Under the pieces are notes generated by a model. It had not been told where the DNA came from and made no database searches. It was given only the letters and a program-made list of their open reading frames with translations. 34,477 nt of DNA from an uncultured Candidatus Saccharibacteria bacterium. Lineage in GTDB: Bacteria; Patescibacteriota; Minisyncoccia; Phycocordibacterales; UBA9973. This document shows positions 11,005 to 28,188 of this stretch, piece by piece. How positions within the stretch are numbered: the first letter of the stretch is position 1; each line of letters opens with the position of its first letter. Where the stretch lies: positions 1-34,477 of the forward strand of contig CAZFKY010000001.1 in assembly GCA_964519485.1 (NCBI GenBank), written 5' to 3'. The position numbers and the translations under genes are program-made.

Positions 11005-14000
11005 TTAGGGTGCATCCCCGCCGCCACCTCCACCGCCACCTCCTTGAGAAGCTAGGCTGTCTGCATAGAAATCATCTCCACGGGTATCACTAGAATTACC
11101 CTTTCCTACCAATCCTGGTCTACCTGTAGAATACGTAGAATCAGTAGTCGTGGTTACGACCACACCATCTTGTTTTAGAGTAAGTGTGGTGCCTGTGATT
11201 TCAAGTCTGATTCTCTCACCGGGATTAAATGCTGTACCAGTGTACAATGTAGTAGGAGCACCGGAAGACCATTTTATAATTTTTACATTTGTACTATCAG
11301 AATAAGCACCATAGCCACTCTGTGCGCCAGACTGCAATCTAACTCCGACACCCATGTAATTTCCGGAAGATAAAGCCGGTAATACAAGCTCAGCAAATTG
11401 ATTATCATTAAATGCTCCCACGTTCCATCTTGCCATAGTATCTACTCCAGCAGCATTACTCATAACTGCATTACTATTTAAGGCAAAAGCTCCATTCAAA
11501 ACATTCCAGCTCGAATCATAACCCACCAAAGGCACACCATTAGACCCTGTAAAGGCTTGAGGCAATTCACCACCACCGCCACCAGAATTACCTTCTCCAC
11601 CGCCACCATTAAATCCTCCGTGGCCAAAACCTCCACCACCGACAGCTGTACCACCACCAGAATCTCCTCCACCACCTCCACCACCGACAGCTGTACCACC
11701 ACCAACAGCCACAAAGCCCCAACAAGAACCATTATTTACACCCACTTTAAATATATGATCTTTCGGACCAGAGTAATTTTGACTAGCGTTACATCCCACA
11801 TCAGACAAAACTACGAAATCTAATATTCCATTTGGAGTTGTAGAAAAAGTGATATACCAAATAGAGCCATTATCAGGAGAACCGATCCAAATAGGCTCTG
11901 TAGGGGTACCGTGGAAATTCATCTGATTTGCAATAATAAGATTCCCGGCGACCGCAAAATTTATTCTGTGTCCTGGTGTTTCATTATTTAAATTATAATA
12001 AGTAGCAGATTTTATTAACACCACATCTGGTATTGGATCTAAAACCACTGTGCCATTATTATGAGTAAATGTGCCTTGCACTGCAAAATTTCCTCGCAAT
12101 GTAAGGATACCTGTATTTGAAGCAATTACATTACCATGAGTATCAAAATCAGCATTTACAGTAAGATTTGGGTCATTGGTATTTAGATTTATATTTGGAT
12201 TACCAGCATTGGTTCCATCTAAGCGATGAACAATCATAGTGCCAGAAGAAGGCACAAAAGTTCCCGGACCTTTCATAGTCAAATCATAATAAGTAATATT
12301 ACCTGGAATATTTGTAGTATTACCGGAACCTGAATTAAAGATTATATTACTACCGGTAGTAGAAGCAGAGAGGGTTCCATTTAATGTAATTGGTGTACCA
12401 TTGTTCAAAGAAAATTCTAGCGTATGCGCACCCACTGAAAGAGTTTGATTAGCATCGATAATAGCGCTTGTTGCAACAACATCAGATAATATAGAAAGTG
12501 TTGTATTTCCTGTATTTGCAGAAATTTGAATAATACCCAAATCAGAATTATTACCATTTGTATTTAAAGTCTGAGTACCAGCCAAACCTTTTGCAAATAT
12601 TACCTTGTTGCTTGCACTTTTATTTACAGTAGGTCCAGAAGAAACTACAGTATTACCACGAACAGTAATATCAGAAGATGGTAATGTAAATGTGCCTGAA
12701 CCTGTAAGTGTGAGGTTATTATAAATACTAGCAACCACATTTTGAGTTGATCCAGAATAAACCACAGTACTATTGCCTGAAGCAAATGTACCGTTAATCA
12801 CGAGAGGTGTGGCCCCTGTAAGCTCTAAAACTCTATTATCTGAGCCCATGTTAAGGGTAGTATTTAAAGATACAGTAACAACACCAACAATAATATTTCC
12901 AGTACCACCAGTAGAGACAGCTACGGCCTGTGACCCAGATGAAGAAGACAAAGTCAAAGTATTAAAAGTCCAATTATTGTTTCCAGATGTTTGACCAAGG
13001 TTTTTAGTAGAAGCTACTTGCATAGTCACAGGGACATCGGTATTTACAGTTCCTGCGCCAGTCATATTTCCGTTTACTATCAAGCTTCCTCCGCCAGTAC
13101 TACCGTTCAAAGTACCATCTACCACAACATCACCAACCAAGGTAGTATTCGCACTACTTCCCAAAGACAGGGTGGCATTATTCGATATAGTGGTAGTGCC
13201 GTTTATAGTCACAGTAGGGTTGTTCACAGCAAAAGAAAATGCTGCTGGATTAGAGCCGTTACCCACTGTAAAATATCCGTTCACAATAGTAGTTCCCGAA
13301 AGGAATTTACTAGCAGAAGCACCTGCGCTTGGACTAATTTGCAAATTATTATAAGTAAGAGCAGGAAGATTTGTCCCACCTGGTCCAGTATAAATCACAG
13401 TAGAACTTCCCGCAGAAAGTGTAGACTTACTGTTAGCAAAAGACAAAGTGCTAGTGGTTAAGCTTGAAGAACCTAGTGATAATGTATCTGTGTTAGTAGA
13501 GCCAGCATTTCCTACAGTAAGAGTTCCAGACACAACATTGCTGCCCGACATATTATATGTAACCCCTGTCAATGCGTCAGAAGTACCTCCGAGTGTCAGA
13601 TTACCGTAAGTCGTAGTCTCTACATCAGTTGTTCCTGTTTGTCCTTCGTAATCAATTGTACTACTAGTGCCACTAAATATACCGTTGTTTATAAATGGTC
13701 TTGATGATCCAGTTCCAGTGCCTGTAATTGTTGTTGTGTAAAAAGATGGGGCAAAAGTCTGAGACGCATCTACGAGCAAAGTCGTCACTTTGGTATCACC
13801 ACTCAAAGCCAAAGTCGTAGCTCCAGAATTTGCTGATATTTGTATATTACCTAAATCACTACTACCACCATTTAGGTTCTGAGTACCTCCACCACCTTTA
13901 GCAAATATTATTTTATTGCTTGCACTCTTGGTGACTGTAGCACTAGCATTCACAACCAGATTACCTCTGATAGTAATATCTGAAGCTGGTAATGTGTATG

Positions 14001-17000
14001 TACTACTGCCACCTAGTGTAAGATTATTGTAAGTAGTAGCAGTGACATTTTGCAATGTTCCAGTATAAGCTACAGTTCCTGTATTTGGCACAAAGCTACC
14101 AGTTATTACAAAAGGACTAGAAAATGCTGTAGATGTGAAATAAAGATTTCTATTACCTGAACCTAGATCAAGGGTAGTGCCTGCACCTACTGTCAAAGAG
14201 TATCCAACATATATATTAGAGGTACCAGCAGAATTTAAAGTGACAGTCGAAGAAGGACTAGAATTTATATTCAAAACCTGGAATTTCCAATCACCAGCAG
14301 GAATAGATCCTGAACCTCCAAAATTCTTATTACTAGCCACATCAATATTCACAATACAAGTAGTACCAAAACAAGTTGAAAAATCAATAACGCCCGAACC
14401 AGTAAGATTGCCCGATACGTTTATGGTGCCTGTACCTGATCCAGATTTATTTATAGTTCCATTAACAATAAGATCATTTGTAGTAATTGATGATACTCCA
14501 GAAGCAACTCCATACACAGCCCCAGCTGCGATGGTGGTAGACCCTGTGACATTTATCACCGGATTGTTTGTTGTTATCACACCTGCATGAGAGCCATCAC
14601 CTATAACCAAGTTATTCGCAACATTTGTAGTGCCAGAAGCTATGGTAATACCAGTCGAAGACGACGAAAGGAACTCTAAATTATAATAACTAGCTGCTGC
14701 TGAAGTAACAACACCGAGAACACTTCCAGTATATCTTACAGTCGATGTTCCATAAACAATTGTGCCTTTGTTTGAACCCGATAAAGACAGAGGTGTCCCT
14801 ATACCAGATGAAAGTGTCAACGTAGTGGAACCTAAATCTAAAATATCTGCATTAAAAGATGAATTATTACCCACAGCTAGAATACCTGCAACAATAACAT
14901 TGCCATTCATAGTATAGGTAACACCGGAAGCAAGGTCCATAGTCGTACCCAAAGACAAAGTATTGTAACCAACATTTGTGGTCTCTATATCTGTAGCTGA
15001 TGTGCCTTCATAATCCATATTAATGTTAGTTATCGTAGTACCATTGTTTATAAATGGCCTAAGAGCACCTGACCCAGAACCAGTCACAGTAAAAGTAGAG
15101 GCCACAGTAGATAGTGTTTGACTAGCATCGACTAAAATTGTCGTGACCTTTGTATTACCAGTCAGAGCCAGAGTCGTAGCTCCAGAATTTGCTGATATTT
15201 GAATATCACCTAAATCACTACTACCGCCATTTAGGTTCTGAGTACCTCCACCACCTTTTGCAAATATTATTTTATTACTTGCACTCTTAGTGACTGTACC
15301 CCCGTTTGAAATCCAGTTGCCTCTTATGGTTATATCAGATGCTGGTAAGGTATAAGTCCCAGCTCCACCTAGGGTAATATTATTGTATGTAGTAGGGGCA
15401 ACATTGGAAGTAGCTCCTGTATACTGCACTGTTCCTGTGTTTGGTATAAATGTACCAGATATTACAAGAGGAGTACCTGTACCAGACAATATAATAGTCT
15501 TGGATCCTGAATCTAAGCTAGTACTACTAGAAATAGTCATTACACCAGACACAGTGATAGACCCTGAGCCAGATTGAATAGTAGAAGTAGTAGAAGAACC
15601 CGTAAATGTAAGACTGCCAAAAGTCCAATTATTGGTGCCACTAGTCGTACCGAAATTTTTATTTATTCCAGCAAAATTATGAGTGAAAGTATTTCCAGAA
15701 ATATTTATAGTGCCTGTACCTGCGACATTACCAGTCGCAGAAATATTCCCCGCACCAGAGCCAGACATAGTGCCATTTACAGTAAGATCAGCCAGTGACA
15801 CTGCTCCACCTCCAGTAGTAAATGTAGCATTGGCTGCGATAGTGGTAGCTCCAGTGACATTTATTATTGGGTTATTAGTAGCAGCTGTTGCTCCATTGTT
15901 TGTGCCATTCCCCACGGTGAGTGTGCCACCGATATTGTAAGTACCAGCACCCATTATATTTTGAGTGGCACCAGCAGGACTCAATTCTAAATTGTTGTAT
16001 GAAGCCGCCGTACTAGTAGCACCATTACCTGTATATTTCACAGTGGAAGTACCAGGAGAGAGTAGACCCTTACTACTACCTGCAAATACTAGAGGCGTAC
16101 CTGTGCCTGATAAAGTCAAAGTGGTAGAACTTAAAACAAAAGTATCTGCATTTGTAGAAGAAGCATTGCCCACAGTAAGAACATTTTGTACTGTGATATT
16201 ACCTGAAGCAGTAAATGTCCCGCCTGCCACTGTATCAGATATTGAACCGATGTTTAAATTATAATAAGTAGCACTAGCTACAGAATTTCCAGTAGAAAAA
16301 CCTTCAAAGCCAAAAGTAGAAGCATTAGGAGTAAATACACCGCGTGAGGCATTTACCACCAAAGATCCGTTAGTTGAACCACCTGTCGAAGCTTGACCAG
16401 TAACCCAAGTCCTAGAACCAGCATCGAGAGTCGTGCTAGCAGAATCAGCACCTAAACCAACATTAACACTAAAAAATCCATATATACCACCAGAACCCCC
16501 AGAAGAAGCTGTAATAGTGACAGGTGAACCAGAAGAATTTGAAAACTTCAATGTAGCAAAATCCCAATTATTAGACCCAGATGTAGTACCAAAATTTTTA
16601 CTACTTGCTACTCTTTGCTCAAAAGTTGCATTAAATAAATTTATTCTACCCACACCTACTACATTTCCATTTGCAAAAACATTGTGAACTGCTCCACCAG
16701 ACAAAGTACCGTCGACTGTTAAATCACCGACAAAGTTAAACACACCATCACCATCTGTAAAGATAGCGTTCGCAGCAATTGTGGTAGTACCATTGACTGT
16801 AAAGGCTGGGTCATTAAGAACAGCACTGACTCCTGCATTTGTTCCATCTCCAACAGTAAGTGCCCCTCCTATAGTATAAGTACCAGCACTCAAGATCTGC
16901 TGAGAAGAACTAGAAGGTTTAAATCCTACATTGTTGAAAGTTGTACCGGCTGGTTGCGCAGGAATAGTAACTCCGTTACCAGTAAAATCAAGAGTGGAAG

Positions 17001-20000
17001 TTGCTCCAGTAAATACACCTTGAGGTGAAGATAGTATTACGAGTGGTGTCGAAGCAGAAGAAAGCGTCCATGTCTTTCCTCCTGCGTTTAATGTAGTCAC
17101 AGCACCTACAGCATCCCCTGCCTTACCCACGAGCAAACTTCCAGTTACTGTTATGCCACCTGTACCAGATTGAGTTGTTATAGTAAAAGGAGAAGATGCA
17201 TGAGAATTTGAAAAAGTTAAATTATTAAAAGTCCAATTGTTGGTGCCACTAGTTGTGCCAAAGTTTTTTGCAGCTGATACTCTTTGTTCAAAAGTATTCC
17301 CTGAAATATTTATAGTGCCTGTACCTACAACTGCGCCATTTACTGTAATACTTCCTGCGCCAGAACCAGACAATGTACCATTTACTGTAAGATCTCCTGG
17401 TATAGTTAACGTATTAGCGCTAGTGGTCAAAGTACCAGCTGTAATGGTAACACCGCCGACAGTAGTAAGACCAGAAGAAAATGTCCATCCCCCTCCGCTA
17501 CCATTAAATACTAAAGTGTCGAAATTACTAGATCCGTCTTCAATGGTAAAACCTGTTCCTGTCGCGGTGAATGTTGTTGTTTGTCCACCACCATAAGTAA
17601 ATGTTCCGCCATTGGTGAAATCTCCTCCCACAGAGAGAGCATTTGTACCCATTGCAAGAGTTGCACCAGATTGGATCAACACATCACCATCTGGGTTGCC
17701 AGAAGTTGATGCTGCGGTTGTTGTCACTGTTCCTCCTGGAGTAAATGTATTACCTGTCCAGACTAGGAGCTTGTTGCCAGAAGCCACAGTCAAATTTCCA
17801 GCACTTTCAGTAAACTTAATATTTGCATTATTCGCACTGTCATAAGCCCCCATATTTGTATTAGTTGTAGCCACTCCATTTTCATTACGCACTATTACTC
17901 TTTGGGCATATAAATCTATTGTGACTGGGTTGGTTCCATCGGCTACTTTTGTCACCGCGGATGCTTGTTGAGATGGGGTTGCGCTATCTACAAAAATAGT
18001 AAACACATCCCCTGCCACAGCACTACCCACAGCCGGCAAAGTATATGCACCAGTTCCTGATACTGATGAAGCCGATTGGGCAAGCACTCCGTTCTTAGCC
18101 ACACGCACAGTGAGAGATACTCCTGTAAGAGGTGTAACCCCTTCATTAGTATATATAGTTCCAGAAACCACAACCCCCACGACTGGGAATGACCAACAAG
18201 TAGAATCATTTATAGTAGCAGTAGGATCATCCACAGAAGTAGAATCCAAGCTAACTACAGCAGAGGAAGAACATCCAGAGTGTTGTAGATTTACATATGT
18301 AACTGTATTTTGAGTATTCAAAAAATCTGCAAGCCATACAGCCGTGGATGTAGATGTAATTGTTATCAAGTTTCCAGATGTACCAGTAACTACAAAAGAA
18401 TTTGCCGGACCATTGAAATTAAAGGTGGTACCAGCAGTAAACCTCACTGTCTTGGCAGCACCAATACCAGAGACATCAAACCCATAAAATGTAGTCGCTC
18501 CAGCGATAGTCGCCGTAGATGTAGTATTAAACTTTACTGTACCATTATTGTGAGCAAAGCCAGTAGTAGTAGCAGGAGTATTAGTAAAATTGCCACCTAT
18601 CGTGAGAGTGCCAGAAGTAGAGGTAAATGCTCCTCCAGTATTCACAAGGAGGTTGCCAGTCAAATTGATAGCAGAGTTTCCTCCAGCAAAAATTCCAGAT
18701 GCCCCAGCACCTATAGTCAAATTTACTGCTCCCAAGGTAAATCCTGTGCCTTGAGTTAGAGTGGTGCCGTTGCCTACGGTAATATTACCTGTTACAGCGA
18801 GACTAGCACCTGTGGTCCAAGATACTGTGCCTGAAGTTGCTAAATCCCCTGTCACTGTAGTCACCGCGCAAGTCACAGTGCCACTACCAGTAAAATTTAA
18901 ATCATCATATGTGGTGACCTTACAATTTGGGGCTGCAGCGGTATAATTCACCACATTACCTGTGGCTGTGGCATCTAGAGTTGTGATGCTAGGAGCCGAA
19001 GCAAAGCCGATATTCAAAACTCCTGTAGCACCGTTGGTTAAAGTAGCTCCAGCCAAACCACCACTTACAGTGAGGGTGCTGTTGTTTGCAACTGCGGTTG
19101 TCGCAGTGAGAGTACCTGCTACTGTAGTGGTGCCACCTATAGTAGCAGTACCAGAACCATTCACAGTAAGATTATTATAAGTAGTAAGAGCAGTAATAGC
19201 TGGCGATGAACCTGTATAAGCTATGGTATTGCCTGTATTTGTCAGTGTGCCTGAAACAACAAGAGGGGTGCCAGACCCAGCGAGAGTAATAGTACCGGTA
19301 GTAGCAGCAGTTAATGTTCCTGTTACTGTCAGATTTTCAGTATTTATATTTTCAGAACCGGACAAGACTAAGGTATCACCAGATTCTATTTGTAATGTCT
19401 CCCCTGTATATGAATTTGCGCCACCGGCACACCCAGTACCTTGCACATTTAAAGTACTTGAACTGACAGAATACATTACGTCTTCATCATCTGTACAATC
19501 ATAACCAATGCTTGTAGGATCAAGATTTGTTAGAGTCATGGATTGGTCATCGACAGAACCTATAGATAAGACATTGGTATTTAGTACTATTCCAGTCATA
19601 TTTCCAGTACCATCATATTTAGCTATTGCCGTAGATTCAGCAGCATCAGCCACAGCATCTATCCATGCCACGAGGACTTGGCCAGAAGATATAGCAACAT
19701 TACTAGCACTCCAAGTGCCTCCACCAATTACAGCACTCTGACCTGAGAGCACTCCATTGATTGCAAACTTTACTGTTCCTGTAGTATTTGAAGTTCCTGA
19801 CACTGTAGTACCGCAACCACCGACTGTCCAAGTGGTGTCCCCTGATTTAGTAGAAGTGTAAATAGTGACAGAACCAGTCATATCATCCACATCTACGTTA
19901 TAGATATTAAATGTTCCCGTACCTGACCACGCTCTGGTAGTGTTGTTTACACTTGATCTAATCAAAATACTATCTGCTCCATCCACGCATTGTGTCCCAT

Positions 20001-23000
20001 TATTTGAGTTAATAGTTATGATACCAGAGTTGGTGACAGTACTAGCTAGAGTTATCTGCCCTGTTCCTATATTTTGCCATACACCAGCTGAAGCCACAGT
20101 GATAGTACTGTTTGCAACCAAAGTGCTTGCTTGATCAAAAGTTCCATTATTAACATTGAGAGCAGCTCCCAAGGTCACTGCTCCAGTTATAGACAAAGTT
20201 CCAATACCATTTTTTGTAAGTCCAGACGCTGAGCCCACAGTACCCGCCAAGGTTACAGTGTATCCATTAGTATCGATAACACCGACAGAAGTAAGGGTGA
20301 CTGCTCTAGTGGATGGTGAAGAAATATTCCCTCCTGCTTGGAGTGTACCTCCGTTAAATATAAGAGTGTTGGTAACACTTCCATTACCAATAGCAGTAGT
20401 ACTGTTGGCTCTCAATGTACCTAGAGTTATTGTAGTTGTACCTGTATAAGTATTACTACCAGAAAGGGTCACTGTACCTGCAGTAGTTTTCGTCATACCT
20501 ATAGCACCAGCCAATATTGCACTTACTGTTCCACTTGAAAATGCATATGAGGTACCGGTCAACACTCCCGAACTACTTGTAATTCCACCATTGGTGAGTG
20601 TCACAGTACCTACTGTGTCAGTAAAAGTTGCGAGGTTGGCAAAGCCACCGATTACAGTAAGGTTACCAGAAGACAGAGCATCGTTGATCCCCCACGCCAA
20701 AGTTCCCGCATTGATAGTGGTCAAACCTGTAAAAGTATTTGCAGCAGAAAGTGTCACCGTGCCTCCGGTGTTTTTATTTAAGGCAATAGCACCACCGGCT
20801 AGCACTGCACTGATTGTTCCATTTTCTACAGTATATGCTGCTGATGATGCTATAGTTGCCGCACCACCAGTGTTCACTATAGAACCATCGATCAAAGTCA
20901 CCGCACCAATAAGAGTGGTGCCTCCTTCAGAGAAGCCACCAAGGTCCCATGTACCACCAGCCACAGTCACCGCTGGTGTAGCAAGAGCATCTGCAATGCC
21001 GTATTTAAGTGTTCCTCCATTTATACGCACAAGACCTGTGGTTACACTTACCGCACTAATTGTAAGAGTACCTGAACCATATTTAGTTATTGTTGCTGTT
21101 GTTGCTGAAGCACCGTAGACACCTGATATCGTCACCGGACCTGAGCCATCAATTGCTAAATTTCTTAAGTTTGCAGCAGTAATAGTTCCACCAAAAGTAA
21201 GTATACCAGCACCATTATTTGTAATTCTGGTATTAGAGCTTACTGTCATGGCACCAAAATTACTGTTCCCTGTTGCTGAGCTCGTAAGAGCACCACCATT
21301 ACCTATGCCTGTACCACTTAGGTTTAGGGTTTCGTAAGTAGAAGCCCCACCCAAAGAAAAAGTACTAAGATCTAATACCGCACCATCAGACACAGTGACA
21401 CCTCCTGCATTTGTACCGAGAGGAGTGTTTGTTGCTCCACCACTAGCACCCAATTGAAGTTTACCTGTGCTTACTGTCATAGCACCTGTCATTGTGTTTT
21501 GACCTCCCAATATAAGAGTACCTGAACCCTCTTTCACTAAAGTACCTGTACCCGACCATACACTATTTGTGGCTTGAGTAAAATTACCTACAGCAACTAC
21601 TGTAAGCGCAAAATTACCTGAAATTGCACCAGATACAGTCCAAACTCCTGTGCCATGATTGGCGACACGAGAAGCCGCACCCATAACAATATTTCCAGTA
21701 TAAGATATAGTATTATTAGAGCTATTTATAAATGCTCCGGTACTTGCGATACCAGTACCATTTATAGTAGCAGTCTCTGCAGTGCCCAGGGTAAAACCAT
21801 TCAAATCAAAAATTGCACCGCTTGTAACTGACACACCACCAGCACTTGTTCCGAGTGGTGTGTTAGAGGCACCACCAGCTGCACCTAGTTTCAAAGTACC
21901 AGCACTCACTGTGACAGCTCCTGTAAAAGTACTCGTAGCTCCTGATATAGTCCAGACACCAAGACCATTTTTTGTAAGTGTGCCTGTTGTTGTATTTAAA
22001 TTACTTGAAAGTGTTCCATTTCCCGCTCCACCAATAGTTAAAGCAAAAGTATTTCCTGTAATATTTCCAGTATTAGTAATATTTATATCTCCGTAGTTAG
22101 AAATAATTGTACTTGCTGCACCTAATGTAATTAATCCACTGTAAGAAACAGCTGCACTAGACTGATTTTGTAATGCTCCGGCACCCAAAGCACCACTCAA
22201 GGTCAGAGCTTCGGATGTTCCTAATGTGTAACCATTTAAATCCAAAGCCGAATTTGCTCCGGAAATTGTAGTCCCCGCTCCTGTTGTTCCGAGTGGAGTA
22301 TTTGTTACCCCACCACTAGCCCCGAGGCGGAGTGTTCCTGCGCTCACAGTCGTTAGGCCAGTATAACTATTATCCCCAGCAAAAACCAACACTCCTGTTC
22401 CTGTGCTCTTTGTTGGAGCAAAAGCACCACTAATGACAGCAGTAATTACAGCATCATTATCCATAAGTCCATCTGCAATATCAAATGTTCTAGCTGCACC
22501 TAGTCCTAGGTTACCTGTAACTAAAGAAGTTTTATTTGCATCTGCAATAGTTGTGAAGGTGCCTCCCAGAGTAAGTGTGCCTGCACCAGTAGTCACAGTA
22601 CCCACACGAAGAGAGAGGGCACCTATGGTATCAGAGTTACCATTTAGATTTGCAGTTCCATCTACAATAGTCAAACCTCCACTCGAGAGAGCATTACTAA
22701 CACCCCAAGTAAGAGTGATGTCGTTTACATAAGTTATACCTGTATAAAGATTGGCCGCACTGAGCGTAATAGTATTTCCAGATCCACTTAATGTTAAAAG
22801 CCCTGTTGTGGCTGTGCCGATAACTGCAGAGATTGTGGCGTTAGCTGTTGCTAAGACATCGAGTTCAAAAGTAGTAATACCGATAGTGGTATTTGCTCCG
22901 GCTATGCTTGTGGCTGAGTTCATTAATATGTTTCCTGAAAGTGAAGCTGAGGCCATAGTGATAGTAGCAGCAGCATTAGTAATACCAAATCCGTTTAATG

Positions 23001-26000
23001 TCAGTGAGTTGATACTCACAGTGCTTGCCGCCACATTACCTGTCAATTTCACGTTTGCATTTGCAGCCAAGGTAGCAGAATATTCACCAGAAAATCCAGC
23101 ACCATTCAATAAACGTAGTCCATTGGTATTACCCACATTGTAGGTCACCATATCGCTACCTGTACCAGATAGAGAGCTATCTCCAAATGCACCTTTAATC
23201 ACGCTTATAGTAGTAGAGTTGGCAGCACCTGCCGCACCAGTGAGGGTCGGTGCTGTAGTAAACATGAGTGTTGATACATTGGCCGCTGGAGTAGAGCCAA
23301 AACTTGTCCCACGAAATAATACCGTAGCTCCAGCTGTTCTACTGAAACTAGTAGCAGCTCCAAATGTAAGCGTGGTGGATCCACCAGCTCCCGGAATCAC
23401 GGTCACAATATTATGACCAGAAGACAATAATAATTGCCCCATTGTCTCTGAAGATGTACCAGCTGCGTTACCAATAAAATTCAAATTACCGTCGTTCATG
23501 GTTAAGACCAAAGAATCTAATATACGACTAGCTACAGCAGTGGTGCTATTGTCCAGTGTTAGAGTAGCAGTAGGATTTATGGTAATAGCAGATACAGACA
23601 CAGCAGACCCAGAGCCACTGATAACCACCGTTCCAGCATTTATAGTCATAGTACTACTAATAGTATTTACTCCAGTTAGAGTAACTGTGTTGTTTGTGTT
23701 TTTTGTGACAGCCACTGCTCCAGCCAAAATACCGCTCACAGTTCCACTCTCAAGAGTATACGCGGTACCAGTAAGTGCTGCCGAGTTTGCAATAGTACCA
23801 CCCACGAGTGTTACCGTACCTATAGTGTCAGCATTGGCACCATTATTAAAAGTACCTCCATTCATTATCAGGTTAGTAGCCACCAGAGTTGTGGTTGCAG
23901 CATAAGCAAAAGTTCCCGCATCAACACGGGTGATACCAGTATAAAGATTGGCTCCTGTCACTGTAAAAGTTCCCGAACCCTGCTTGATGATAGATAAAGC
24001 CACTGCGGGTATTACCGCACTAAAGGTGATATTACCTGAACCACCTACATACAAAGAAAAAGCTCCACCCACAGCTCCTGTTATAGTCATCGTCCCAGAA
24101 TTGTTTGTAATACGGGAATCACTAGCTTGAGTAATAGAACCACCAAAAGTACCACTGCTACCGACAATGGATCCGCCATTACCAATTCCACGTCCATTGA
24201 TAGTCAACGTTTCAGTTGTTGGTAATGTAAAACCATTAAAATCAAATACAGCGCCACTGTAAACAAAGACACCCCCAGCGTTAGTTCCGACAGGTGTGTT
24301 GGTGGCGCCTCCACTAGCACCAAGTTTTAGTATGCCAAGGTTTACACTTAAAGCTCCAGTAAAAGTATTTTGTCCAGATAAAGTCCAAGTACCGATACCA
24401 ATTTTTGTCACTGTTGCTGATCCTGTTCCTATAATACTTGCCAAGGTTCCGACACCAGATCCACCTAAAGTAAGCGCGAATGTCGCTCCAGATATTGTCC
24501 CAGCATTAGTCAAACTAATATCACCCGAATCAGCTTTTATTAAAACACCAGTAGAACCTAATGTAATTAAACCACTGTAAGTAACAGCTGACCCCGAACT
24601 ATTTATTAAAGAACCTGAAGCAAAATCTCCCAATCCATACCCAACTCCGTTTAATGTCAAAGGCTCAGCTGTAACTAAATTAAAACCATTCAAATCTAGA
24701 CGAGCACCTAAAGCTACTGTGGTTATGCCTCCGGTAGTTCCAAGTGGAGTATTTGCTCCACTTCCTGCGCCACCAAGTTTTAATGTACCCATACTGATGG
24801 TGGTCGCTCCTGTATAAGTGTTGTTACCCGAAGCAATAAAATTTCCTATACCATCTTTAGTCAAAGCACCTGTAGTCAGAGCTATCACTCCTGAAATAGT
24901 GATATCACTAAAACCTCCGACTGTTAGACCTATAGCTGCACTATTGATAGCGCTACTTATAGTAAGAGCTCCGTAGTCAGCATTTATTCTAGCTGCTGCT
25001 GTGAGAGTGATCGTTCCGCTATAGCTCACGGGTGTGTTGACACTATTCATGAGTGCACCCATGTTGCTATTTCCGGCTGCCACCGAAGTACCAGGACCGT
25101 AACCCAATCCAGCCAAAGAGAGTGGCTCTGTAGTTGATAGCGTATATCCATTCAAATCAAGAGCAGCGATATTGGCAACGGTAGTTGCTCCGACAGCATC
25201 ACCGAGTGGAGAATTTACACCATCTCCGGCACCACCAATCTTCAAGATACCACTAGTGATAGTGGTTGCTCCTGTATATGTGTTGTTGCGAGTCATAAGG
25301 ACCACACTGTCTGCAGAAGTATTTGTAGCTATACGAGTCACAACAACTCCAGTACCTCCAATAATAGCGCTCACTGTTCCCTCTCTAAAGTTATATGAGG
25401 TACCAGTGAGCACACCTGTTGAACCAGTGATGGTTCCGTTTTGAAGAATAACTGCACCCACTGAATCAGTAAAGGTAGCAATATCTAAAATACCTCCATT
25501 CACAGTGACATTACCTGTTGAAATAGCATTATTTATGCCATAAAGAAGTGTGCCTTCATTTACAGAGGTAAGTCCTGTATAAGTCTTTGCGGTAGAAAAA
25601 GTAAGAGTGCCAGCCCCATCTTTAGTCAAACCACCAGTAGTGGTGATAAGTGAAGAAATGGTTATATTACTAGAAGCATTTATAGTAAGCTCAACTGAAC
25701 CTCCTGCTATGGTCGTATTTGCACCATCAATAGTAGCACTAGAAGCTGTATTTAAAACATTACCAGAAGTAAGTGTCACGACTTGGGCACTGCCAGGGTT
25801 GGATATAGATCCACTCCCACTCAATATAAGAGAATTTATAGTAGAAGTAACCGCCGCTGTGCTGGCTGTGAGTTTTACATTGGCATTTGTTGTTGCAAAA
25901 TCACTTGCATACTCTCCACTAAAACCTGCACCGTTGAGCAAGCGTAAACCATTGGAATTTCCTCTACCATAAGTCACCATATCTGTACCGTCCCCACTCA

Positions 26001-28188
26001 AAGAATCATCTCCGAAAGCTCCTTGGATAATACTGAGAGTTGTAGAATTTGGAGCACCTGCACCACCGGTCAGTGTGGGAGCAGTCTTAAACAAAAGTGT
26101 AGATACTCCAGCCCCCGGACTAGCACCCAAAGAAGTACCTCTAAATAAAACAGAGGCTCCGGCCGTGCGTGTCAGAGATGCAAATTGCATTGTAGTAGAC
26201 CCTCCCGACCCGGGCGTGATAGTAACGACATTGTCACCCGATTGCGTTGCTATACCTATAGTGAGAGCTCCGGCGGTCTCATCTGAAGCTTCAGAACTTG
26301 AACCAATAAAATTAAAATTACCACCATTCATAGTGAGGGCTAGGGTATCGGCAATACGATCAACCACATCAGTAGTGCTATTGTCGAGTGTAAGTGTAGA
26401 TCCAGCACTTATGGTCATAGTAGTAGAAAGTGGCATAGCACCAGAACTATTCAAAACCAAAGAACCACCATTTATATTTGTAGCTCCAGTAAAGTTATTG
26501 AAGGCTTGCAGAGTCAAAACACCACCATTGGTTTTTGTCAGTGTTGCAGTCGTACCATATATAGGAGCAGTGGAGGTAAAAGTAGTATTTCCCTCACCAC
26601 CGATAGTCAAGCCCAAGGTCGTAGCTGAGAGACCCTTGCTATCTATAGTAAGAGTAGTGCTTATGTCGGATTCAATCATCGCTGCCGCACCTAGGGTGAG
26701 TAATCCAGTGATAGTGTTATTACCAGTAGTGTTTCTTATTGCGCCACTATATAAATGACCTGTTCCTGAAAATGTAATATACTCTGGTATTGATAAACCC
26801 GTGCCGTCTATCTGCAAAGTGGCTCCTGCAGTAACAGTAGTAATACCATCTATAGTACCCAAGGCCAAGCTGTCTTGAATTTTTAGTACGCCGAGGCTCA
26901 CAGTGGTAGCACCAGTATATTTATTGGCTCTTGTTAGAGTCACAGTTCCTGTTGTACTTTTTGTTAATGTACCAGCTGCACCAGAAATAATCGCACTAAT
27001 AGTACCATTATAGACTGTCCAAGTAGCACTAGAAAGCACGCCTGTTGACCCAGTAATTGTACCATTGGCTAAATCCAGTGTTCCCAAAGTGACGGTTCCC
27101 ACCATATCAGAAAAAGTTGAAATATCTAGAGTTCCGCCTGTTATCGTAACAGCACTAGAAAGAAGCGCATTGTCTACTCCATACAACACAGTTCCTGCAT
27201 TAATGGTAAATACACCCGAATTGGTATTTGGGAAATTAAAAGTTATTGTCCCAGAACCATTTTTAGTAATAGAGCCACTACCCGATATGGGTGCTTTAGA
27301 AAAAGCCATATTACCAGATCCATCAAAAACCAATGCAAAATTTCCAGTAATACCCCCTGTCATATTAAGAGTACCGGCGTCTGAAGCTATTTCTGTACCA
27401 CCAGTTGAAGTTAAAGTAATTAGACCACCGAAAGTATTTGTACCACTAATATTTCTCAATGCGCCACCATTAGACACTCCATATCCTCTCAGTGTTAGAG
27501 CTTCATAACTGACATTAATATCGCCTTGAAGCTCCAACGCAGCACCACCCACAACTTCTGTACCAGCTAGAATTGTACCCAGTGCTGTAGAATGACGGGC
27601 ATTAATTACTCCAACATTTATTTTAGTAATACCACCATATGTATTGGCTCCAGTTAGTATCAACGTTCCAGTTCCTTCTTTGTTAAAACCACCCGCACCA
27701 GATATTCTGCCACTTATTGTTAAAGATTCAGATGTATTGTTTACATAAATATCACGAACAACATCTATACGAATATCAAGAGCAATAGTGTTTCCACCAG
27801 AAGCCACACTATCTGTAATACCAGCAAGACCTTGCCCTAATATTATTCTATTACCAGATAATGTATAACCACTGCCAGATAAAGTAATAGAGTTTATGAT
27901 TGTGTTTTCTGTGAGATCGTTTGAGTTTGAAAGATTAGAAGCTCCACCCGGGAACACAAGATCATCACCAGTGACAGGTGCAGTACCTCCCCAGTTGCCA
28001 GGATTAGACCAGAGATTGCTAGATGCTCCTGTCCAAGTCCTAGTGGCTGCTTCTACTTTTGGAGTGTTAAAAGAAAATAATACTATTAAAATAGAAATAA
28101 AAAATCCAAGCCTAAAAAACGACTTTGTAAAATTAGTTTTGTGAAATTTATCTACAACATTTCTCAAGATATATTTATTATACAACAA
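11005..28188 (-). CDS. Giant (5,727-aa) secreted fibre/adhesin-like protein with a PATR-repeat N-terminal half, beta-helix-like super-repeats and a C-terminal lectin-like domain
   Basis: A single uninterrupted 17,184-nt frame. It has an N-terminal signal peptide and more than a dozen GxGTLxLxGxNTYTGxTTIxxGTLxLG-type repeats. Composition is Thr/Gly/Ser/Ala/Asn-rich and it ends in a poly-Gly tail. The frame starts at a TTG (28188, or 28167), and there is no in-frame ATG for roughly the first 290 codons. Confidence 0.93.
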   Translation of the reverse strand: MLYNKYILRNVVDKFHKTNFTKSFFRLGFFISILIVLFSFNTPKVEAATRTWTGASSNLWSNPGNWGGTAPVTGDDLVFPGGASNLSNSNDLTENTIINSITLSGSGYTLSGNRIILGQGLAGITDSVASGGNTIALDIRIDVVRDIYVNNTSESLTISGRISGAGGFNKEGTGTLILTGANTYGGITKINVGVINARHSTALGTILAGTEVVGGAALELQGDINVSYEALTLRGYGVSNGGALRNISGTNTFGGLITLTSTGGTEIASDAGTLNMTGGITGNFALVFDGSGNMAFSKAPISGSGSITKNGSGTITFNFPNTNSGVFTINAGTVLYGVDNALLSSAVTITGGTLDISTFSDMVGTVTLGTLDLANGTITGSTGVLSSATWTVYNGTISAIISGAAGTLTKSTTGTVTLTRANKYTGATTVSLGVLKIQDSLALGTIDGITTVTAGATLQIDGTGLSIPEYITFSGTGHLYSGAIRNTTGNNTITGLLTLGAAAMIESDISTTLTIDSKGLSATTLGLTIGGEGNTTFTSTAPIYGTTATLTKTNGGVLTLQAFNNFTGATNINGGSLVLNSSGAMPLSTTMTISAGSTLTLDNSTTDVVDRIADTLALTMNGGNFNFIGSSSEASDETAGALTIGIATQSGDNVVTITPGSGGSTTMQFASLTRTAGASVLFRGTSLGASPGAGVSTLLFKTAPTLTGGAGAPNSTTLSIIQGAFGDDSLSGDGTDMVTYGRGNSNGLRLLNGAGFSGEYASDFATTNANVKLTASTAAVTSTINSLILSGSGSISNPGSAQVVTLTSGNVLNTASSATIDGANTTIAGGSVELTINASSNITISSLITTTGGLTKDGAGTLTFSTAKTYTGLTSVNEGTLLYGINNAISTGNVTVNGGILDIATFTDSVGAVILQNGTITGSTGVLTGTSYNFREGTVSAIIGGTGVVVTRIATNTSADSVVLMTRNNTYTGATTITSGILKIGGAGDGVNSPLGDAVGATTVANIAALDLNGYTLSTTEPLSLAGLGYGPGTSVAAGNSNMGALMNSVNTPVSYSGTITLTAAARINADYGALTISSAINSAAIGLTVGGFSDITISGVIALTTGALTKDGIGNFIASGNNTYTGATTISMGTLKLGGAGSGANTPLGTTGGITTVALGARLDLNGFNLVTAEPLTLNGVGYGLGDFASGSLINSSGSAVTYSGLITLGSTGVLIKADSGDISLTNAGTISGATFALTLGGSGVGTLASIIGTGSATVTKIGIGTWTLSGQNTFTGALSVNLGILKLGASGGATNTPVGTNAGGVFVYSGAVFDFNGFTLPTTETLTINGRGIGNGGSIVGSSGTFGGSITQASDSRITNNSGTMTITGAVGGAFSLYVGGSGNITFSAVIPAVALSIIKQGSGTFTVTGANLYTGITRVDAGTFAYAATTTLVATNLIMNGGTFNNGANADTIGTVTLVGGTIANSAALTGTAYTLESGTVSGILAGAVAVTKNTNNTVTLTGVNTISSTMTINAGTVVISGSGSAVSVSAITINPTATLTLDNSTTAVASRILDSLVLTMNDGNLNFIGNAAGTSSETMGQLLLSSGHNIVTVIPGAGGSTTLTFGAATSFSRTAGATVLFRGTSFGSTPAANVSTLMFTTAPTLTGAAGAANSTTISVIKGAFGDSSLSGTGSDMVTYNVGNTNGLRLLNGAGFSGEYSATLAANANVKLTGNVAASTVSINSLTLNGFGITNAAATITMASASLSGNILMNSATSIAGANTTIGITTFELDVLATANATISAVIGTATTGLLTLSGSGNTITLSAANLYTGITYVNDITLTWGVSNALSSGGLTIVDGTANLNGNSDTIGALSLRVGTVTTGAGTLTLGGTFTTIADANKTSLVTGNLGLGAARTFDIADGLMDNDAVITAVISGAFAPTKSTGTGVLVFAGDNSYTGLTTVSAGTLRLGASGGVTNTPLGTTGAGTTISGANSALDLNGYTLGTSEALTLSGALGAGALQNQSSAAVSYSGLITLGAASTIISNYGDINITNTGNITGNTFALTIGGAGNGTLSSNLNTTTGTLTKNGLGVWTISGATSTFTGAVTVSAGTLKLGAAGGASNTPLGTSAGGVSVTSGAIFDLNGFTLGTAETATINGTGIASTGAFINSSNNTISYTGNIVMGAASRVANHGTGVWTVSGAISGNFALTVVAVGNFTQATNSVWSGTGTLVKEGSGTLILGGQNTMTGAMTVSTGKLQLGASGGATNTPLGTNAGGVTVSDGAVLDLSTFSLGGASTYETLNLSGTGIGNGGALTSSATGNSNFGAMTVSSNTRITNNGAGILTFGGTITAANLRNLAIDGSGPVTISGVYGASATTATITKYGSGTLTISAVSVTTGLVRINGGTLKYGIADALATPAVTVAGGTWDLGGFSEGGTTLIGAVTLIDGSIVNTGGAATIASSAAYTVENGTISAVLAGGAIALNKNTGGTVTLSAANTFTGLTTINAGTLAWGINDALSSGNLTVIGGFANLATFTDTVGTVTLTNGGITSSSGVLTGTSYAFSSGTVSAILAGAIGMTKTTAGTVTLSGSNTYTGTTTITLGTLRANSTTAIGNGSVTNTLIFNGGTLQAGGNISSPSTRAVTLTSVGVIDTNGYTVTLAGTVGSASGLTKNGIGTLSITGAVTLGAALNVNNGTFDQASTLVANSTITVASAGVWQNIGTGQITLASTVTNSGIITINSNNGTQCVDGADSILIRSSVNNTTRAWSGTGTFNIYNVDVDDMTGSVTIYTSTKSGDTTWTVGGCGTTVSGTSNTTGTVKFAINGVLSGQSAVIGGGTWSASNVAISSGQVLVAWIDAVADAAESTAIAKYDGTGNMTGIVLNTNVLSIGSVDDQSMTLTNLDPTSIGYDCTDDEDVMYSVSSSTLNVQGTGCAGGANSYTGETLQIESGDTLVLSGSENINTENLTVTGTLTAATTGTITLAGSGTPLVVSGTLTNTGNTIAYTGSSPAITALTTYNNLTVNGSGTATIGGTTTVAGTLTATTAVANNSTLTVSGGLAGATLTNGATGVLNIGFASAPSITTLDATATGNVVNYTAAAPNCKVTTYDDLNFTGSGTVTCAVTTVTGDLATSGTVSWTTGASLAVTGNITVGNGTTLTQGTGFTLGAVNLTIGAGASGIFAGGNSAINLTGNLLVNTGGAFTSTSGTLTIGGNFTNTPATTTGFAHNNGTVKFNTTSTATIAGATTFYGFDVSGIGAAKTVRFTAGTTFNFNGPANSFVVTGTSGNLITITSTSTAVWLADFLNTQNTVTYVNLQHSGCSSSAVVSLDSTSVDDPTATINDSTCWSFPVVGVVVSGTIYTNEGVTPLTGVSLTVRVAKNGVLAQSASSVSGTGAYTLPAVGSAVAGDVFTIFVDSATPSQQASAVTKVADGTNPVTIDLYAQRVIVRNENGVATTNTNMGAYDSANNANIKFTESAGNLTVASGNKLLVWTGNTFTPGGTVTTTAASTSGNPDGDVLIQSGATLAMGTNALSVGGDFTNGGTFTYGGGQTTTFTATGTGFTIEDGSSNFDTLVFNGSGGGWTFSSGLTTVGGVTITAGTLTTSANTLTIPGDLTVNGTLSGSGAGSITVNGAVVGTGTINISGNTFEQRVSAAKNFGTTSGTNNWTFNNLTFSNSHASSPFTITTQSGTGGITVTGSLLVGKAGDAVGAVTTLNAGGKTWTLSSASTPLVILSSPQGVFTGATSTLDFTGNGVTIPAQPAGTTFNNVGFKPSSSSQQILSAGTYTIGGALTVGDGTNAGVSAVLNDPAFTVNGTTTIAANAIFTDGDGVFNFVGDLTVDGTLSGGAVHNVFANGNVVGVGRINLFNATFEQRVASSKNFGTTSGSNNWDFATLKFSNSSGSPVTITASSGGSGGIYGFFSVNVGLGADSASTTLDAGSRTWVTGQASTGGSTNGSLVVNASRGVFTPNASTFGFEGFSTGNSVASATYYNLNIGSISDTVAGGTFTASGNITVQNVLTVGNASSTNADTFVLSSTTLTLSGTGTPLVFAGSSKGLLSPGTSTVKYTGNGATSTAASYNNLELSPAGATQNIMGAGTYNIGGTLTVGNGTNNGATAATNNPIINVTGATTIAANATFTTGGGAVSLADLTVNGTMSGSGAGNISATGNVAGTGTINISGNTFTHNFAGINKNFGTTSGTNNWTFGSLTFTGSSTTSTIQSGSGSITVSGVMTISSSTSLDSGSKTIILSGTGTPLVISGTFIPNTGTVQYTGATSNVAPTTYNNITLGGAGTYTLPASDITIRGNWISNGGTVTKSASNKIIFAKGGGGTQNLNGGSSDLGDIQISANSGATTLALTGNTKVTTILVDASQTLSTVASTFTVTGSGSGALRPFINNGTTITNINMDYEGTSATDIETTNVGYNTLSLGTTMDLASGVTYTMNGNVIVAGILAVGNNSSFNADILDLGSTTLTLSSGIGTPLSLSGSNKGTIVYGTSTVRYTGSVLGVVTSAAASYYNLEFLSSSSTGITIASGTTNVANNLVIGDGSHAGVITTNNPVINVTGSTTIAAGAVYGVASGVSSITTNDLIVNGTINKSGSGTGTINVSGNLTGSGVIDFSTCFGTTCIVNIDVASNKNFGGSGSIPAGDWKFQVLNINSSPSSTVTLNSAGTSNIYVGYSLTVGAGTTLDLGSGNRNLYFTSTAFSSPFVITGSFVPNTGTVAYTGTLQNVTATTYNNLTLGGSSTYTLPASDITIRGNLVVNASATVTKSASNKIIFAKGGGGTQNLNGGSSDLGNIQISANSGATTLALSGDTKVTTLLVDASQTFAPSFYTTTITGTGTGSSRPFINNGIFSGTSSTIDYEGQTGTTDVETTTYGNLTLGGTSDALTGVTYNMSGSNVVSGTLTVGNAGSTNTDTLSLGSSSLTTSTLSFANSKSTLSAGSSTVIYTGPGGTNLPALTYNNLQISPSAGASASKFLSGTTIVNGYFTVGNGSNPAAFSFAVNNPTVTINGTTTISNNATLSLGSSANTTLVGDVVVDGTLNGSTGGGSLIVNGNMTGAGTVNTDVPVTMQVASTKNLGQTSGNNNWTFNTLTLSSSSGSQAVAVSTGGTGNIIVGVVTVSLNTTLNMGSDNRVLELTGATPLVINGTFASGNSTVVYSGSTQNVVASIYNNLTLTGSGTFTLPSSDITVRGNTVVSSGPTVNKSASNKVIFAKGLAGTQTLNTNGNNSDLGIIQISANTGNTTLSILSDVVATSAIIDANQTLSVGAHTLEFSLNNGTPITLNGTLSASTTGSNIIFNSGSGNTTNIPGNITYYDLTMKGPGTFVPSSGTMIVHRLDGTNAGNPNINLNTNDPNLTVNADFDTHGNVIASNTGILTLRGNFAVQGTFTHNNGTVVLDPIPDVVLIKSATYYNLNNETPGHRINFAVAGNLIIANQMNFHGTPTEPIWIGSPDNGSIWYITFSTTPNGILDFVVLSDVGCNASQNYSGPKDHIFKVGVNNGSCWGFVAVGGGTAVGGGGGGGDSGGGTAVGGGGFGHGGFNGGGGEGNSGGGGGELPQAFTGSNGVPLVGYDSSWNVLNGAFALNSNAVMSNAAGVDTMARWNVGAFNDNQFAELVLPALSSGNYMGVGVRLQSGAQSGYGAYSDSTNVKIIKWSSGAPTTLYTGTAFNPGERIRLEITGTTLTLKQDGVVVTTTTDSTYSTGRPGLVGKGNSSDTRGDDFYADSLASQGGGGGGGGGDAP
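11050..11560 (-). other. C-terminal concanavalin-A/LamG-like (lectin-type jelly-roll) domain of the giant protein
   Basis: LPQAFTGSNGVPLVGYDSSWNVLNGAFALNSN..ARWNVGAFNDNQFAELVL..YMGVGVRLQSGAQSGYGAY..IKIIKWSSGAPTTLYTG..GERIRLEITGTTLTLKQDGVVV..GRPGLVGKGNSSDTRGDDFYA. The alternating beta pattern and the W/F/Y landmarks resemble LamG/ConA-like domains. This call rests on recognition only. Confidence 0.5.
11560..11710 (-). repeat. Gly-rich linker with a direct DNA repeat
   Basis: It encodes GGGTAVGGGGGGGDSGGGTAVGGGGFGHGGFNGGGGEGNSGGGGGE. On the plus strand, ctccaccaccgacagctgtaccaccacca occurs twice (about 11631-11659 and 11676-11704). Confidence 0.8.
13814..13939 (-). repeat. 126-nt high-identity core, copy A
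   Basis: 120 of 126 nt are identical to 15183-15308 (offset exactly 1,369 nt). The flanks of the same repeat unit are clearly more diverged, roughly 70% by eye. Confidence 0.9.
15183..15308 (-). repeat. 126-nt high-identity core, copy B
   Basis: Same comparison as 13814-13939, counted by hand: six mismatches (T/A, T/C, A/G, A/T, G/A, G/A). Confidence 0.9.
20150..28040 (-). repeat. PATR (autotransporter-associated beta-strand repeat, TIGR02601/PF12951-type) array, ~2,600 aa
   Basis: Examples: KEGTGTLILTGANTYGGITKINVGVINA, KDGAGTLTFSTAKTYTGLTSVNEGTLLYG, KDGIGNFIASGNNTYTGATTISMGTLKLGG, KSTGTGVLVFAGDNSYTGLTTVSAGTLRLGA, KEGSGTLILGGQNTMTGAMTVSTGKLQLGA, KTTAGTVTLSGSNTYTGTTTITLGTLRAN. Confidence 0.85.
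28048..28188 (-). other. Sec-type signal peptide of the giant protein
   Basis: ..KSFFRLGFFISILIVLFSFNTPKVEA|ATRTW shows a basic n-region, a hydrophobic core and a V-E-A cleavage motif. Confidence 0.7.
28177..28182 (-). promoter_or_regulatory. TATAAT hexamer at the 5' end of the giant gene
   Basis: Minus strand reads ttg-TATAAT-aaatatatc-TTG(28167). The hexamer lies inside the ORF if translation starts at TTG 28188, and 9 nt upstream of the alternative TTG at 28167. Confidence 0.25.

Follow-up and report, generated by a model that had tools for sequence, protein, structure and literature searches.

A giant gene of the PATR family in a Patescibacteria contig and the candidate role of its product as a secreted surface fibre

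Half of the window analysed here, a complete NCBI contig of 34,477 bp, is taken up by a single giant gene, and the closest described systems to its product are the type Va PATR adhesins, such as Fusobacterium Fap2, Salmonella ShdA and pertactin, with which it shares a Sec signal, a predicted long right-handed β-helix, PATR/TIGR02601 repeats, a linker near the C-terminus and a presumed adhesin-type role. In Fap2, 2,905 helix residues correspond to 47 nm and a flexible linker adjoins the anchor (PMC12397386). Unlike these adhesins, the window protein has no C-terminal barrel and belongs to a monoderm-type Patescibacterium, and its predicted rod, which combines PATR with non-PATR solenoid, has about double the length. 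A second group of PATR proteins, from Planctomycetota, Verrucomicrobiota, Gemmatimonadota and relatives, resembles the window protein in its N-terminal 440 aa, which are 35-50% identical to hundreds of these proteins and open with the same motif, W.G....W....NW...P...D.L.F. They differ, however, in having PEP-CTERM (PF07589) at the C-terminus or S8 peptidase or DUF11 domains, whereas the window protein closes with a Gly hinge, a CBM66-like domain and poly-Gly-x-P and has no transmembrane (TM) helix there. The giant proteins of Omnitrophota and other bacteria exceed 30,000 aa and combine many TM regions, SecA-like domains, long β-helix segments and carbohydrate-binding modules, with a proposed role in cell attachment (10.1101/2023.11.21.568195). 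The window protein is similar to these in representing a very large investment by small-celled, host-dependent bacteria and in its β-helix segments, but distinct in its size of 5.7 thousand residues, its single signal peptide and its domain set. Adhesin-like surface proteins are important in Patescibacteria (PMC11665869), and we found no paper linking PATR proteins to this group. Giant β-helical adhesin-like fibres are already known; new is the combination of a PATR rod, a second solenoid, an end composed of cap, hinge, CBM66-like domain and poly-Gly-Pro, and a weak start, in a Patescibacterium. On balance, we favour the view that the protein is a giant Sec-exported adhesin-type surface fibre, whose C-terminal module would be the cell-proximal end that retains it.

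The giant gene is real and intact. Its open reading frame (ORF) continues uninterrupted over 17 kb of AT-rich DNA, with 5,727 codons free of stops, and covers 17,184 of the 34,477 bases (49.8%), in agreement with an earlier sequence-only reading that the gene fills half of the window. The product from the probable start, TTG 28167, has 5,720 residues. Thr makes up 17% of the protein, Gly 15.5%, Ser 11% and Asn 9%, whereas Cys occurs only 12 times. The gene and the parts of its product are arranged as follows, with residues numbered along the ORF:
11005..28188, minus strand: ORF of the giant gene, 5,727 codons plus the TAA stop at 11005-11007
11005..28167, minus strand: probable coding sequence, starting at TTG 28167
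28048..28167, minus strand: predicted Sec-type signal peptide (aa 8-47), with a basic n-region and the hydrophobic core FFRLGFFISILIVLFSF, then PKVEA/ATRTW
20119..28047, minus strand: PATR β-helix region (aa 48-2690), which has large duplications within it and contains 18 PATR units (aa 166-2685)
19804..20091, minus strand: end-cap-like segment of the PATR rod (aa 2700-2795), with Cys2734 and Cys2792; the putative cap role is suggested by analogy with the other two caps
18184..19803, minus strand: second cassette (aa 2796-3335), with a β-sandwich-like start, a short β-helix and the cap GC...CWSF (Cys3306...Cys3331-W-S-F)
11704..18183, minus strand: third cassette (aa 3336-5495), a long non-PATR β-solenoid with the terminal cap GC...CWGF (Cys5466...Cys5489-W-G-F)
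11566..11703, minus strand: Gly-rich flexible linker (aa 5496-5541, 46 aa), from the sequence
11044..11565, minus strand: predicted jelly-roll domain (aa 5542-5715, ~175 aa) with a CBM66-like lectin fold, from AlphaFold2 (AF2) and Foldseek
11008..11043, minus strand: far C-terminal end GGGGGGGGGDAP (aa 5716-5727), with mixed GGN codons for its Gly residues

That the protein belongs to the PATR family is shown by matches to PF12951 (E 5.1e-28 and 2.8e-27) and TIGR02601 (E 5e-36 and 1.1e-33), which are restricted to the N-terminal ~2,700 residues. An iterated local profile places the 18 units of aa 166-2685 at intervals of 100-400 aa. Thus, the earlier estimate of about 2,600 aa of PATR repeats is correct as to the extent of the region, but the repeats are spaced motifs on a β-helix rather than back-to-back copies. 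Within this region, aa 601-793 and aa 1545-1735 form a diverged duplication with 64% identity. Beyond the Patescibacteria, the PATR rod finds its best relatives among PATR proteins from Gemmatimonadota, Chloroflexota, Planctomycetota and Verrucomicrobiota, and many of these have a PEP-CTERM anchor at their end.

Beyond the PATR rod, aa 2800-5727 have no match in Pfam, in NCBIfam (also at lax thresholds) or among PDB sequences, and PDB sequence searches with four regions of the protein returned only Gly-linker noise. The second cassette is homologous to segments of two metagenomic giant proteins (P0004 and P0006) and of a Nomurabacteria protein (L002p) at 51-54% identity. The third cassette contains three super-repeats of ~440 aa (aa 4003-4437, 4436-4890 and 4889-5333), which are up to 63% identical, and its terminal cap is kept in 13 homologues. 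A word-indexed homologue search with the super-repeat at aa 4436-4890 (~455 aa) found nothing at E<=1e-5, where the 8,000 scored candidates are suspected to have been swamped by low-complexity T/G/S-rich proteins. AF2 models cover aa 4880-5500 and the last 187 aa, and one AF2 alignment was used without the row of the L002 protein. For aa 4880-5500, a 15-row alignment yielded a model with ~66 short strands and no helices (predicted local distance difference test score, pLDDT, 83.9; predicted TM-score, pTM, 0.79). The weak top Foldseek matches of this model are nearly all β-solenoids (SepA, EspC, Hap, Hbp, pertactin, Ag43, VacA, PL6 lyases and the MpAFP antifreeze helix), which serves as a qualitative pointer to a β-helix fold only. 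The model therefore supports the assignment of aa 4880-5500 as an all-β solenoid without a close solved relative and, together with the super-repeats, bears out the earlier description of β-solenoid-like repeats beyond the PATR part. The Cys pairs of the caps may form disulfides that close each rod.

The end of the protein, which reads ...SQGGGGGGGGGDAP / ...QGGGGGGGGGDAP, had been described as a Gly-rich linker followed by a lectin-like domain and poly-Gly, and each of these elements was recovered. The model of the last 187 aa, based on a 37-row alignment, is an all-β sandwich with a pLDDT of 95.1, for which Foldseek finds CBM66 as the best PDB match (4azz/4b1m; E 1e-8 to 3e-8, ~20% identity, TMq 0.62-0.68, TMt 0.71-0.76). 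Further PDB matches are galectins, L-type lectins, GH16 glucanases and the central fibre of mycobacteriophage Douge. In BFVD, tail-fibre, minor-tail and receptor-binding proteins of actinophages match best, reaching a TMq of 0.81. Thus, the predicted jelly-roll resembles structurally CBM66 of the Bacillus subtilis levanase SacC (4azz, 4b1m) and the DUF1080/3-keto-disaccharide hydrolase superfamily, but it caps a fibre rather than an enzyme and reaches no Pfam model. It also shares its fold with phage tail-fibre, minor-tail and receptor-binding proteins (DUF7257-type; Douge central fibre gp20), although in the phage proteins the jelly-roll is usually N-terminal or internal and a poly-Gly-x-P terminus is absent.

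An initial homologue search with the C-terminal 431 aa gave only three matches, with low-complexity swamping suspected, whereas an exhaustive profile search with the jelly-roll gave 8,095 representative proteins at E<=1e-3, of which 100 remain at E<=1e-30. PF06439 has weak sub-threshold matches in two homologues (P0013 and P0021), and PHROGs gave only a weak virion-protein match. The jelly-roll thus appears to belong to a very large family that has no curated model for most of its members. Thousands of proteins of ~200 aa, among P0025-P0152 and in the wider family, open directly with the jelly-roll (MALPATDAFTGTNGT...) and have short basic/hydrophobic tails; the few that were scanned have no Pfam match, and one weakly matches phage virion and tail families.

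The closest homologues of the domain are giant proteins of 942-4,982 aa, and those with an N-terminus have Sec signal peptides. We define the C-terminal module by four elements, namely a D[AS]GC...GNN..CW.F cap, a Gly-rich linker of 30-50 aa, a domain of ~175 aa and a terminus of the form G(5-11)-x(0-2)-P. All four are present in the window protein and are common to P0001-P0017 and L002p. Indeed, the cap, the Gly-rich linker of 30-50 aa and the domain precede the end in 13 of 13 homologues inspected, and all 18 close β-helix homologues terminate in poly-Gly, zero to two residues and Pro (for example GGGGGGSP, GGGGGGGGEAP and GGGGGGGPTP), whereas such a terminus is missing from all 64 other proteins in which the jelly-roll comes last. 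The nine terminal Gly residues of the window protein are encoded by mixed GGN codons, which points to selection acting on the peptide and not to slippage of the DNA. Outside the module, the giant homologues can barely be aligned and none has PATR. Read by eye, they carry LamG/DUF2341-like and nuclease-like inserts: P0006 and P0011 have LamG plus DUF2341-like segments, and P0004 has an endonuclease/exonuclease/phosphatase (EEP)-like segment. Two tandem copies of the jelly-roll are found in P0004 and P0006. These varied inserts and tandem domains suggest that the β-helix acts as a scaffold for diverse modules. What is new, to judge from the alignments, is a C-terminal module that is conserved across otherwise mosaic giant proteins.

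No established means of surface attachment is evident in the window protein. In a Kyte-Doolittle scan, the signal peptide is the sole hydrophobic window among the 5,727 residues, with no second hydrophobic or TM segment. The protein contains no LP.[TAS]G or NP.TN sortase motif anywhere, no C-terminal hydrophobic segment or PEP motif as would be present in exosortase, archaeosortase or rhombosortase signals (PEP-CTERM, GlyGly-CTERM), no Dockerin_1 (PF00404) match or D.N.DG..D motif, and no RTX motif or HemolysinCabind match; in contrast to RTX/T1SS giant adhesins such as LapA and MpIBP, which combine GGxGxDxUx nonapeptides with a T1SS signal at the C-terminus and are made without a Sec signal, it carries a Sec-type signal peptide. 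A β-barrel translocator (PF03797 or equivalent) is likewise missing from the Pfam and NCBIfam matches to aa 2800-5727. The sequence-only reading had noted the absence of a barrel, sortase signal and TM segment, and had named a cryptic C-terminal barrel or anchor as the finding that would speak against it; neither was found by the domain scan or by AF2, and the modelling of the last 187 aa as a β-sandwich, with a solenoid at aa 4880-5500, excludes a cryptic barrel. With none of these defining features, the protein is neither an autotransporter nor a substrate of sortases or exosortases, nor is it a dockerin protein or RTX adhesin.

The gene also has an unusual beginning. An in-frame TAA stop (28191-28189) directly precedes the opening of the ORF, and the only canonical starts between this stop and the hydrophobic segment (aa ~24-40) are TTG 28188, 28185 and 28167. 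The sequence-only reading had counted two of these (28188 and 28167), both of which exist, but had missed the third at 28185; its observation that in-frame ATG codons are missing for roughly 290 codons also holds, although the first Met is at codon 276. In an alignment of the 5' regions, the starts of three orthologues (L005, L006 and L007) coincide exactly with TTG 28167, being ATG in L006 and GTG in L007 and L005, and the latter two have no upstream in-frame ATG alternatives. Thus, the start is TTG or GTG in three of four orthologues including the window gene, and the alignment of the starts shows that the non-ATG start proposed earlier is real and recurrent, with TTG 28167 as the most likely start codon. 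A frameshifted ATG start was considered and rejected, as the single ATG nearby (28160-28158) lies in another frame, with TTG TAG directly after it. This is the first ATG after the putative transcription start and forms a two-codon mini-ORF, ATG TTG TAG (28152-28160, minus strand), which overlaps codons 10-13 of the giant ORF.

The predicted signal peptide reads MRNVVDKFHKTNFTKSFFRLGFFISILIVLFSFNTPKVEA and is followed, across the predicted cleavage site, by ATRTW. An AxA-like site is kept in the orthologues (TEA/A, AEA/A and VLA/S), which is consistent with cleavage after VEA in the window protein, and a motif search found no lipobox in the protein. Upstream of TTG 28167 lies a perfect TATAAT, and orthologue L006 has TATACT 8 nt before its ATG. 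If this TATAAT is used as the -10 box, TTG 28188 and 28185 would be outside the mRNA and the leader would comprise only ~3 nt. Perfect TATAAT boxes end 4-10 nt 5' of the start codons of five genes of the window, whereas ~0.08 such coincidences are expected from its 23 minus-strand TATAATs, and none of the gene starts in the window has a visible Shine-Dalgarno-like sequence upstream. The boxes therefore suggest that this organism uses leaderless or near-leaderless mRNAs. A generic terminator scan found no minus-strand terminator 3' of the giant gene. The elements concerned are:
28165..28167, minus strand: likeliest start codon, TTG (ORF codon 8), aligned with the starts of the three orthologues
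28177..28182, minus strand: TATAAT of the giant gene, the candidate -10 box, 9 nt 5' of TTG 28167 and overlapping ORF codons 3-4
10409-10414, minus strand: TATAAT of the dockerin gene
8243-8248, minus strand: TATAAT of the 484-aa gene
4033-4038, minus strand: TATAAT of the 203-aa gene, at an internal ATG
28287-28292, plus strand: TATAAT of the HSP20 gene

With the N-terminal 443 aa as query, three clear orthologues were retrieved that are 65-73% identical, namely P0166 from a Minisyncoccia metagenome-assembled genome (MAG; 73%), P0167 from an ENA metagenome (70%) and P0168 from a 'Candidatus Pacebacteria' MAG (65%). At NCBI, the orthologue fragments are labelled 'autotransporter-associated beta strand repeat-containing protein'. 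Two of the orthologous contigs (L006 and L007) share the neighbourhood of the window, with two Beta-lactamase2 genes, a divergent HSP20 gene and the PATR gene, which indicates true orthology. The orthologue names together with the synteny confirm, at the level of sequence, that the host belongs to the Patescibacteria (the Candidate Phyla Radiation or CPR; Nomurabacteria/Minisyncoccia-like), a phylum whose current name is Minisyncoccota. On the third contig (L005; ENA ERZ3756520 NODE_39375, 2.8x coverage), there is one in-frame TGA at 1441-1446 (YSDMV*TFTLG), exactly at the position of a Gly in the window (FSDMVGTVTLG), after which the frame stays open; most likely, the TGA reflects a sequencing error or pseudogenisation. 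Recoding of TGA as Gly (code 25) occurs in some CPR lineages and was considered, but a single TGA on a contig of 2.8x coverage was treated as an error or pseudogene.

Among GTDB representative genomes, the one close match is in Candidatus Nomurabacteria bacterium RIFCSPLOWO2_01_FULL_39_18 (L002; MFUV01000010), where a protein of 2,858 aa (L002:2039-10615) carries the terminal module at 67% identity and has no PATR. Similar to the metagenomic proteins P0004-P0017, it shares with the window protein the cap, the Gly linker and the CBM-like module, and its locus has equivalent flanks, with an HSP20 gene 46% identical and a downstream dockerin/Big_6 gene 54% identical to those of the window. In contrast to the window protein, it lacks the PATR half, and the cassettes that the two proteins have in common occur in a different order. 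The L002 protein runs 20 residues past its poly-Gly (L002:10531-10615; ASVINAAPDWLQRLWNWLLH). The conserved flanks and shuffled cassettes indicate that the locus is a conserved site for a modular, rapidly rearranged surface protein, of which the window version would have gained or kept a PATR rod of 2.6 thousand residues. Scans with the C-terminal alignment found two loci in genome contigs and one (L004, with match coordinates and identity equal to L002) in metagenome contigs; as both scans depend on two exact peptide patterns, absence elsewhere means little.

The genes that surround the giant gene include several that encode predicted surface proteins:
28297..29082, plus strand: HSP20-domain gene (Pfam), divergent from the giant gene, in a position conserved in L006, L007 and L002
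9079-10401, minus strand: dockerin/FN3/Big_6 protein (Pfam) of 440 aa with a signal peptide and a C-terminal dockerin
8244-9077, minus strand: cohesin protein (Pfam) with a C-terminal TM segment
6782-8236, minus strand: 484-aa cohesin-like protein with a signal peptide and a TM segment

The HSP20 domain comprises only the C-terminal ~90 aa of a 261-aa protein, whose N-terminal ~110 aa (KWYFSIVDVIEVT...RNYWKVLKNRL) are conserved, have no Pfam match and look by eye like a DNA-binding domain of Bro-N/KilA-N type. Its listed start is a GTG, and the probable start is an ATG two codons on. The stretch of surface genes downstream of the giant gene (6782-10911, minus strand) also includes a 139-aa TM protein, and its genes look like a miniature cohesin-dockerin display set. 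Adjoining the giant gene at 29087-31075 (minus strand) are two tandem Beta-lactamase2 (PF13354) paralogues, which have N-terminal membrane anchors and a weak Peptidase_S11 match; the pair has the same place in L006 and L007 and is missing from the L002 locus. We considered these genes as processing enzymes of the poly-Gly tail and rejected them, as they are absent from the Nomurabacteria locus, which keeps the module. At 31090-34477 (minus strand), a second large ORF, rich in Thr, Gly and Ser, extends over at least 1,113 aa and is cut off by the end of the contig; it has no Pfam match and, with Pro/Glu-rich tandem repeats at its C-terminus (PPNEPTPEVAP..GD..PSEGG.GEVAPPEGSN.EGEVA), probably encodes another surface fibre.

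In the model that we favour, translation would begin at TTG 28167 and the signal peptide would send the chain across the single membrane. Outside the cell, three β-helical rods would be stacked end to end, namely the PATR rod of ~2,640 aa, the cassette of ~540 aa and the non-PATR solenoid of ~2,160 aa, each closed by a Cys-pair cap. The Gly-rich hinge would lead to the CBM66-like jelly-roll, which on the modelled fold most likely binds glycan, and to the poly-Gly-x-x-Pro tail as the last element. The C-terminal module would hold the fibre non-covalently on wall or S-layer glycan of the cell itself, so that the variable rods project outward to host cells or surfaces, and the weak start codon would plausibly throttle the synthesis of so costly a protein. 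Scaled from Fap2, the fibre may measure ~80-90 nm, and its adhesive role is likewise suggested by analogy. We place the C-terminus proximal to the cell because the module, like the signal peptide, is constant while the rest of the proteins is mosaic, a signature of sorting and anchoring modules; because C-terminal tethering, by a barrel or PEP-CTERM, is the rule for PATR proteins; because the linker of Fap2 sits beside its anchor; and because the chain emerges from the Sec channel with its C-terminus last.

Several observations weigh against this interpretation. The CBM-like domain would fit equally well at a distal, host-binding tip, as in phage fibres. By sequence, the jelly-roll of the window protein fits neither a curated CBM model nor any Pfam model, and PF06439 gives no match to it at E<=10, while the Foldseek search with the model of aa 4880-5500 returned nothing significant (best E 0.036). 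A generic promoter scan found no full sigma-70 pair of -35 and -10 elements 5' of the giant gene. In addition, each genome scanned yielded only a single module locus, whereas a true wall-anchor module is usually shared by several proteins, although this is a weak point given the two exact peptide patterns on which the scans depend.

The strongest competing explanation, which we nevertheless regard as unlikely, reverses the orientation, such that the CBM66-like domain is the distal tip that grips host glycans and the fibre is held by an uncleaved signal-anchor or by a partner protein. The phage tail-fibre, minor-tail and receptor-binding proteins among its nearest folds, including the Douge central fibre, are compatible with such a tip, as are the many family members of ~200 aa, some of which weakly match phage virion or tail families, and the tandem copies of P0004 and P0006 would raise avidity for the target glycan. 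However, the signal peptide has a conserved AxA-type site and no lipobox, and the giant protein has no dockerin with which to engage the neighbouring cohesin proteins. Moreover, a part that stays constant in mosaic proteins is typical of anchoring rather than of host-specificity tips, and PATR proteins are as a rule tethered at their C-termini.

A more far-reaching version of cell-proximal retention, which we consider doubtful, is that the terminal module represents an unrecognised surface-retention or sorting system of Patescibacteria, in which the jelly-roll would bind the cell's own wall glycan and poly-Gly-Pro would be a recognition or processing signal that operates without a TM helix. 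If so, the poly-Gly-Pro end might, for example, act in covalent attachment or cause a termination pause. For PATR fibres of a monoderm with a tiny genome, the module would take the place of the barrel, PEP-CTERM or LPXTG, and the weak start (TTG or GTG in three of the four orthologues) would have been selected as a throttle on the costly gene.

Slightly more doubtful still is release of the protein as a soluble or matrix exoprotein, for example a biofilm scaffold or an S-layer-associated fibre, with its CBM-like end on environmental polysaccharide. Such a role would account for the lack of any covalent or membrane anchor of known type, and CBM66 itself is the polysaccharide (levan)-binding module of a secreted enzyme. 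Rather, the investment of 5,700 aa in a small genome, the synteny with cohesin and dockerin genes and the conserved terminal module would argue for retention at the cell.

It is very improbable that the ORF is an assembly artefact, whether a chimera of a PATR gene with a separate β-helix gene or the outcome of collapsed or expanded repeat copies. In favour of an artefact, the orthologous contigs all end within the gene and so provide no second full-length copy, the Nomurabacteria positional orthologue is without the PATR half, and the low-coverage orthologue L005 contains the in-frame TGA. Yet exact DNA repeats within the gene reach at most 32 nt, its best long repeat spans 183 nt with 87% identity, and no tandem repeats were detected by Tandem Repeats Finder, such that an assembler would find no long near-exact repeats to collapse or mis-join and repeat-driven misassembly is unlikely. 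In addition to the 17-kb open frame in AT-rich DNA, the GC content is even along the gene, including the junction of the PATR and non-PATR parts, the PATR rod ends in the same type of transition from cap to β-sandwich as seen between the other cassettes, and both flanks of the gene are syntenic with relatives. The least credible alternative is a type V autotransporter or two-partner secretion (TPS) passenger with an unrecognised translocator, for which the PATR repeats and a weak partial match to the ShdA autotransporter model might speak, but which is opposed by the absence of a PF03797-type barrel or any other Pfam or NCBIfam match in the C-terminal 2,900 aa, by the β-sandwich of the last 187 aa and the solenoid of the preceding 620 aa, by a host in the Patescibacteria, which are regarded as lacking an outer membrane, and by the absence of any TpsB/Omp85-like gene seen in the window.

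Patescibacteria live attached to other microbes, and the means by which they hold on are largely unknown. The contig offers a complete and apparently artefact-free example from among the largest surface proteins of this group, whereas related assemblies break inside the gene. It indicates that PATR rods, the textbook passengers of outer-membrane autotransporters, are also used by cells that have neither a barrel nor a known anchor for them, and the conserved, uncurated C-terminal module provides a testable candidate for such an anchor. The locus, moreover, behaves as a hotspot of cassette swapping between conserved flanks, which may be relevant to the evolution of host range.

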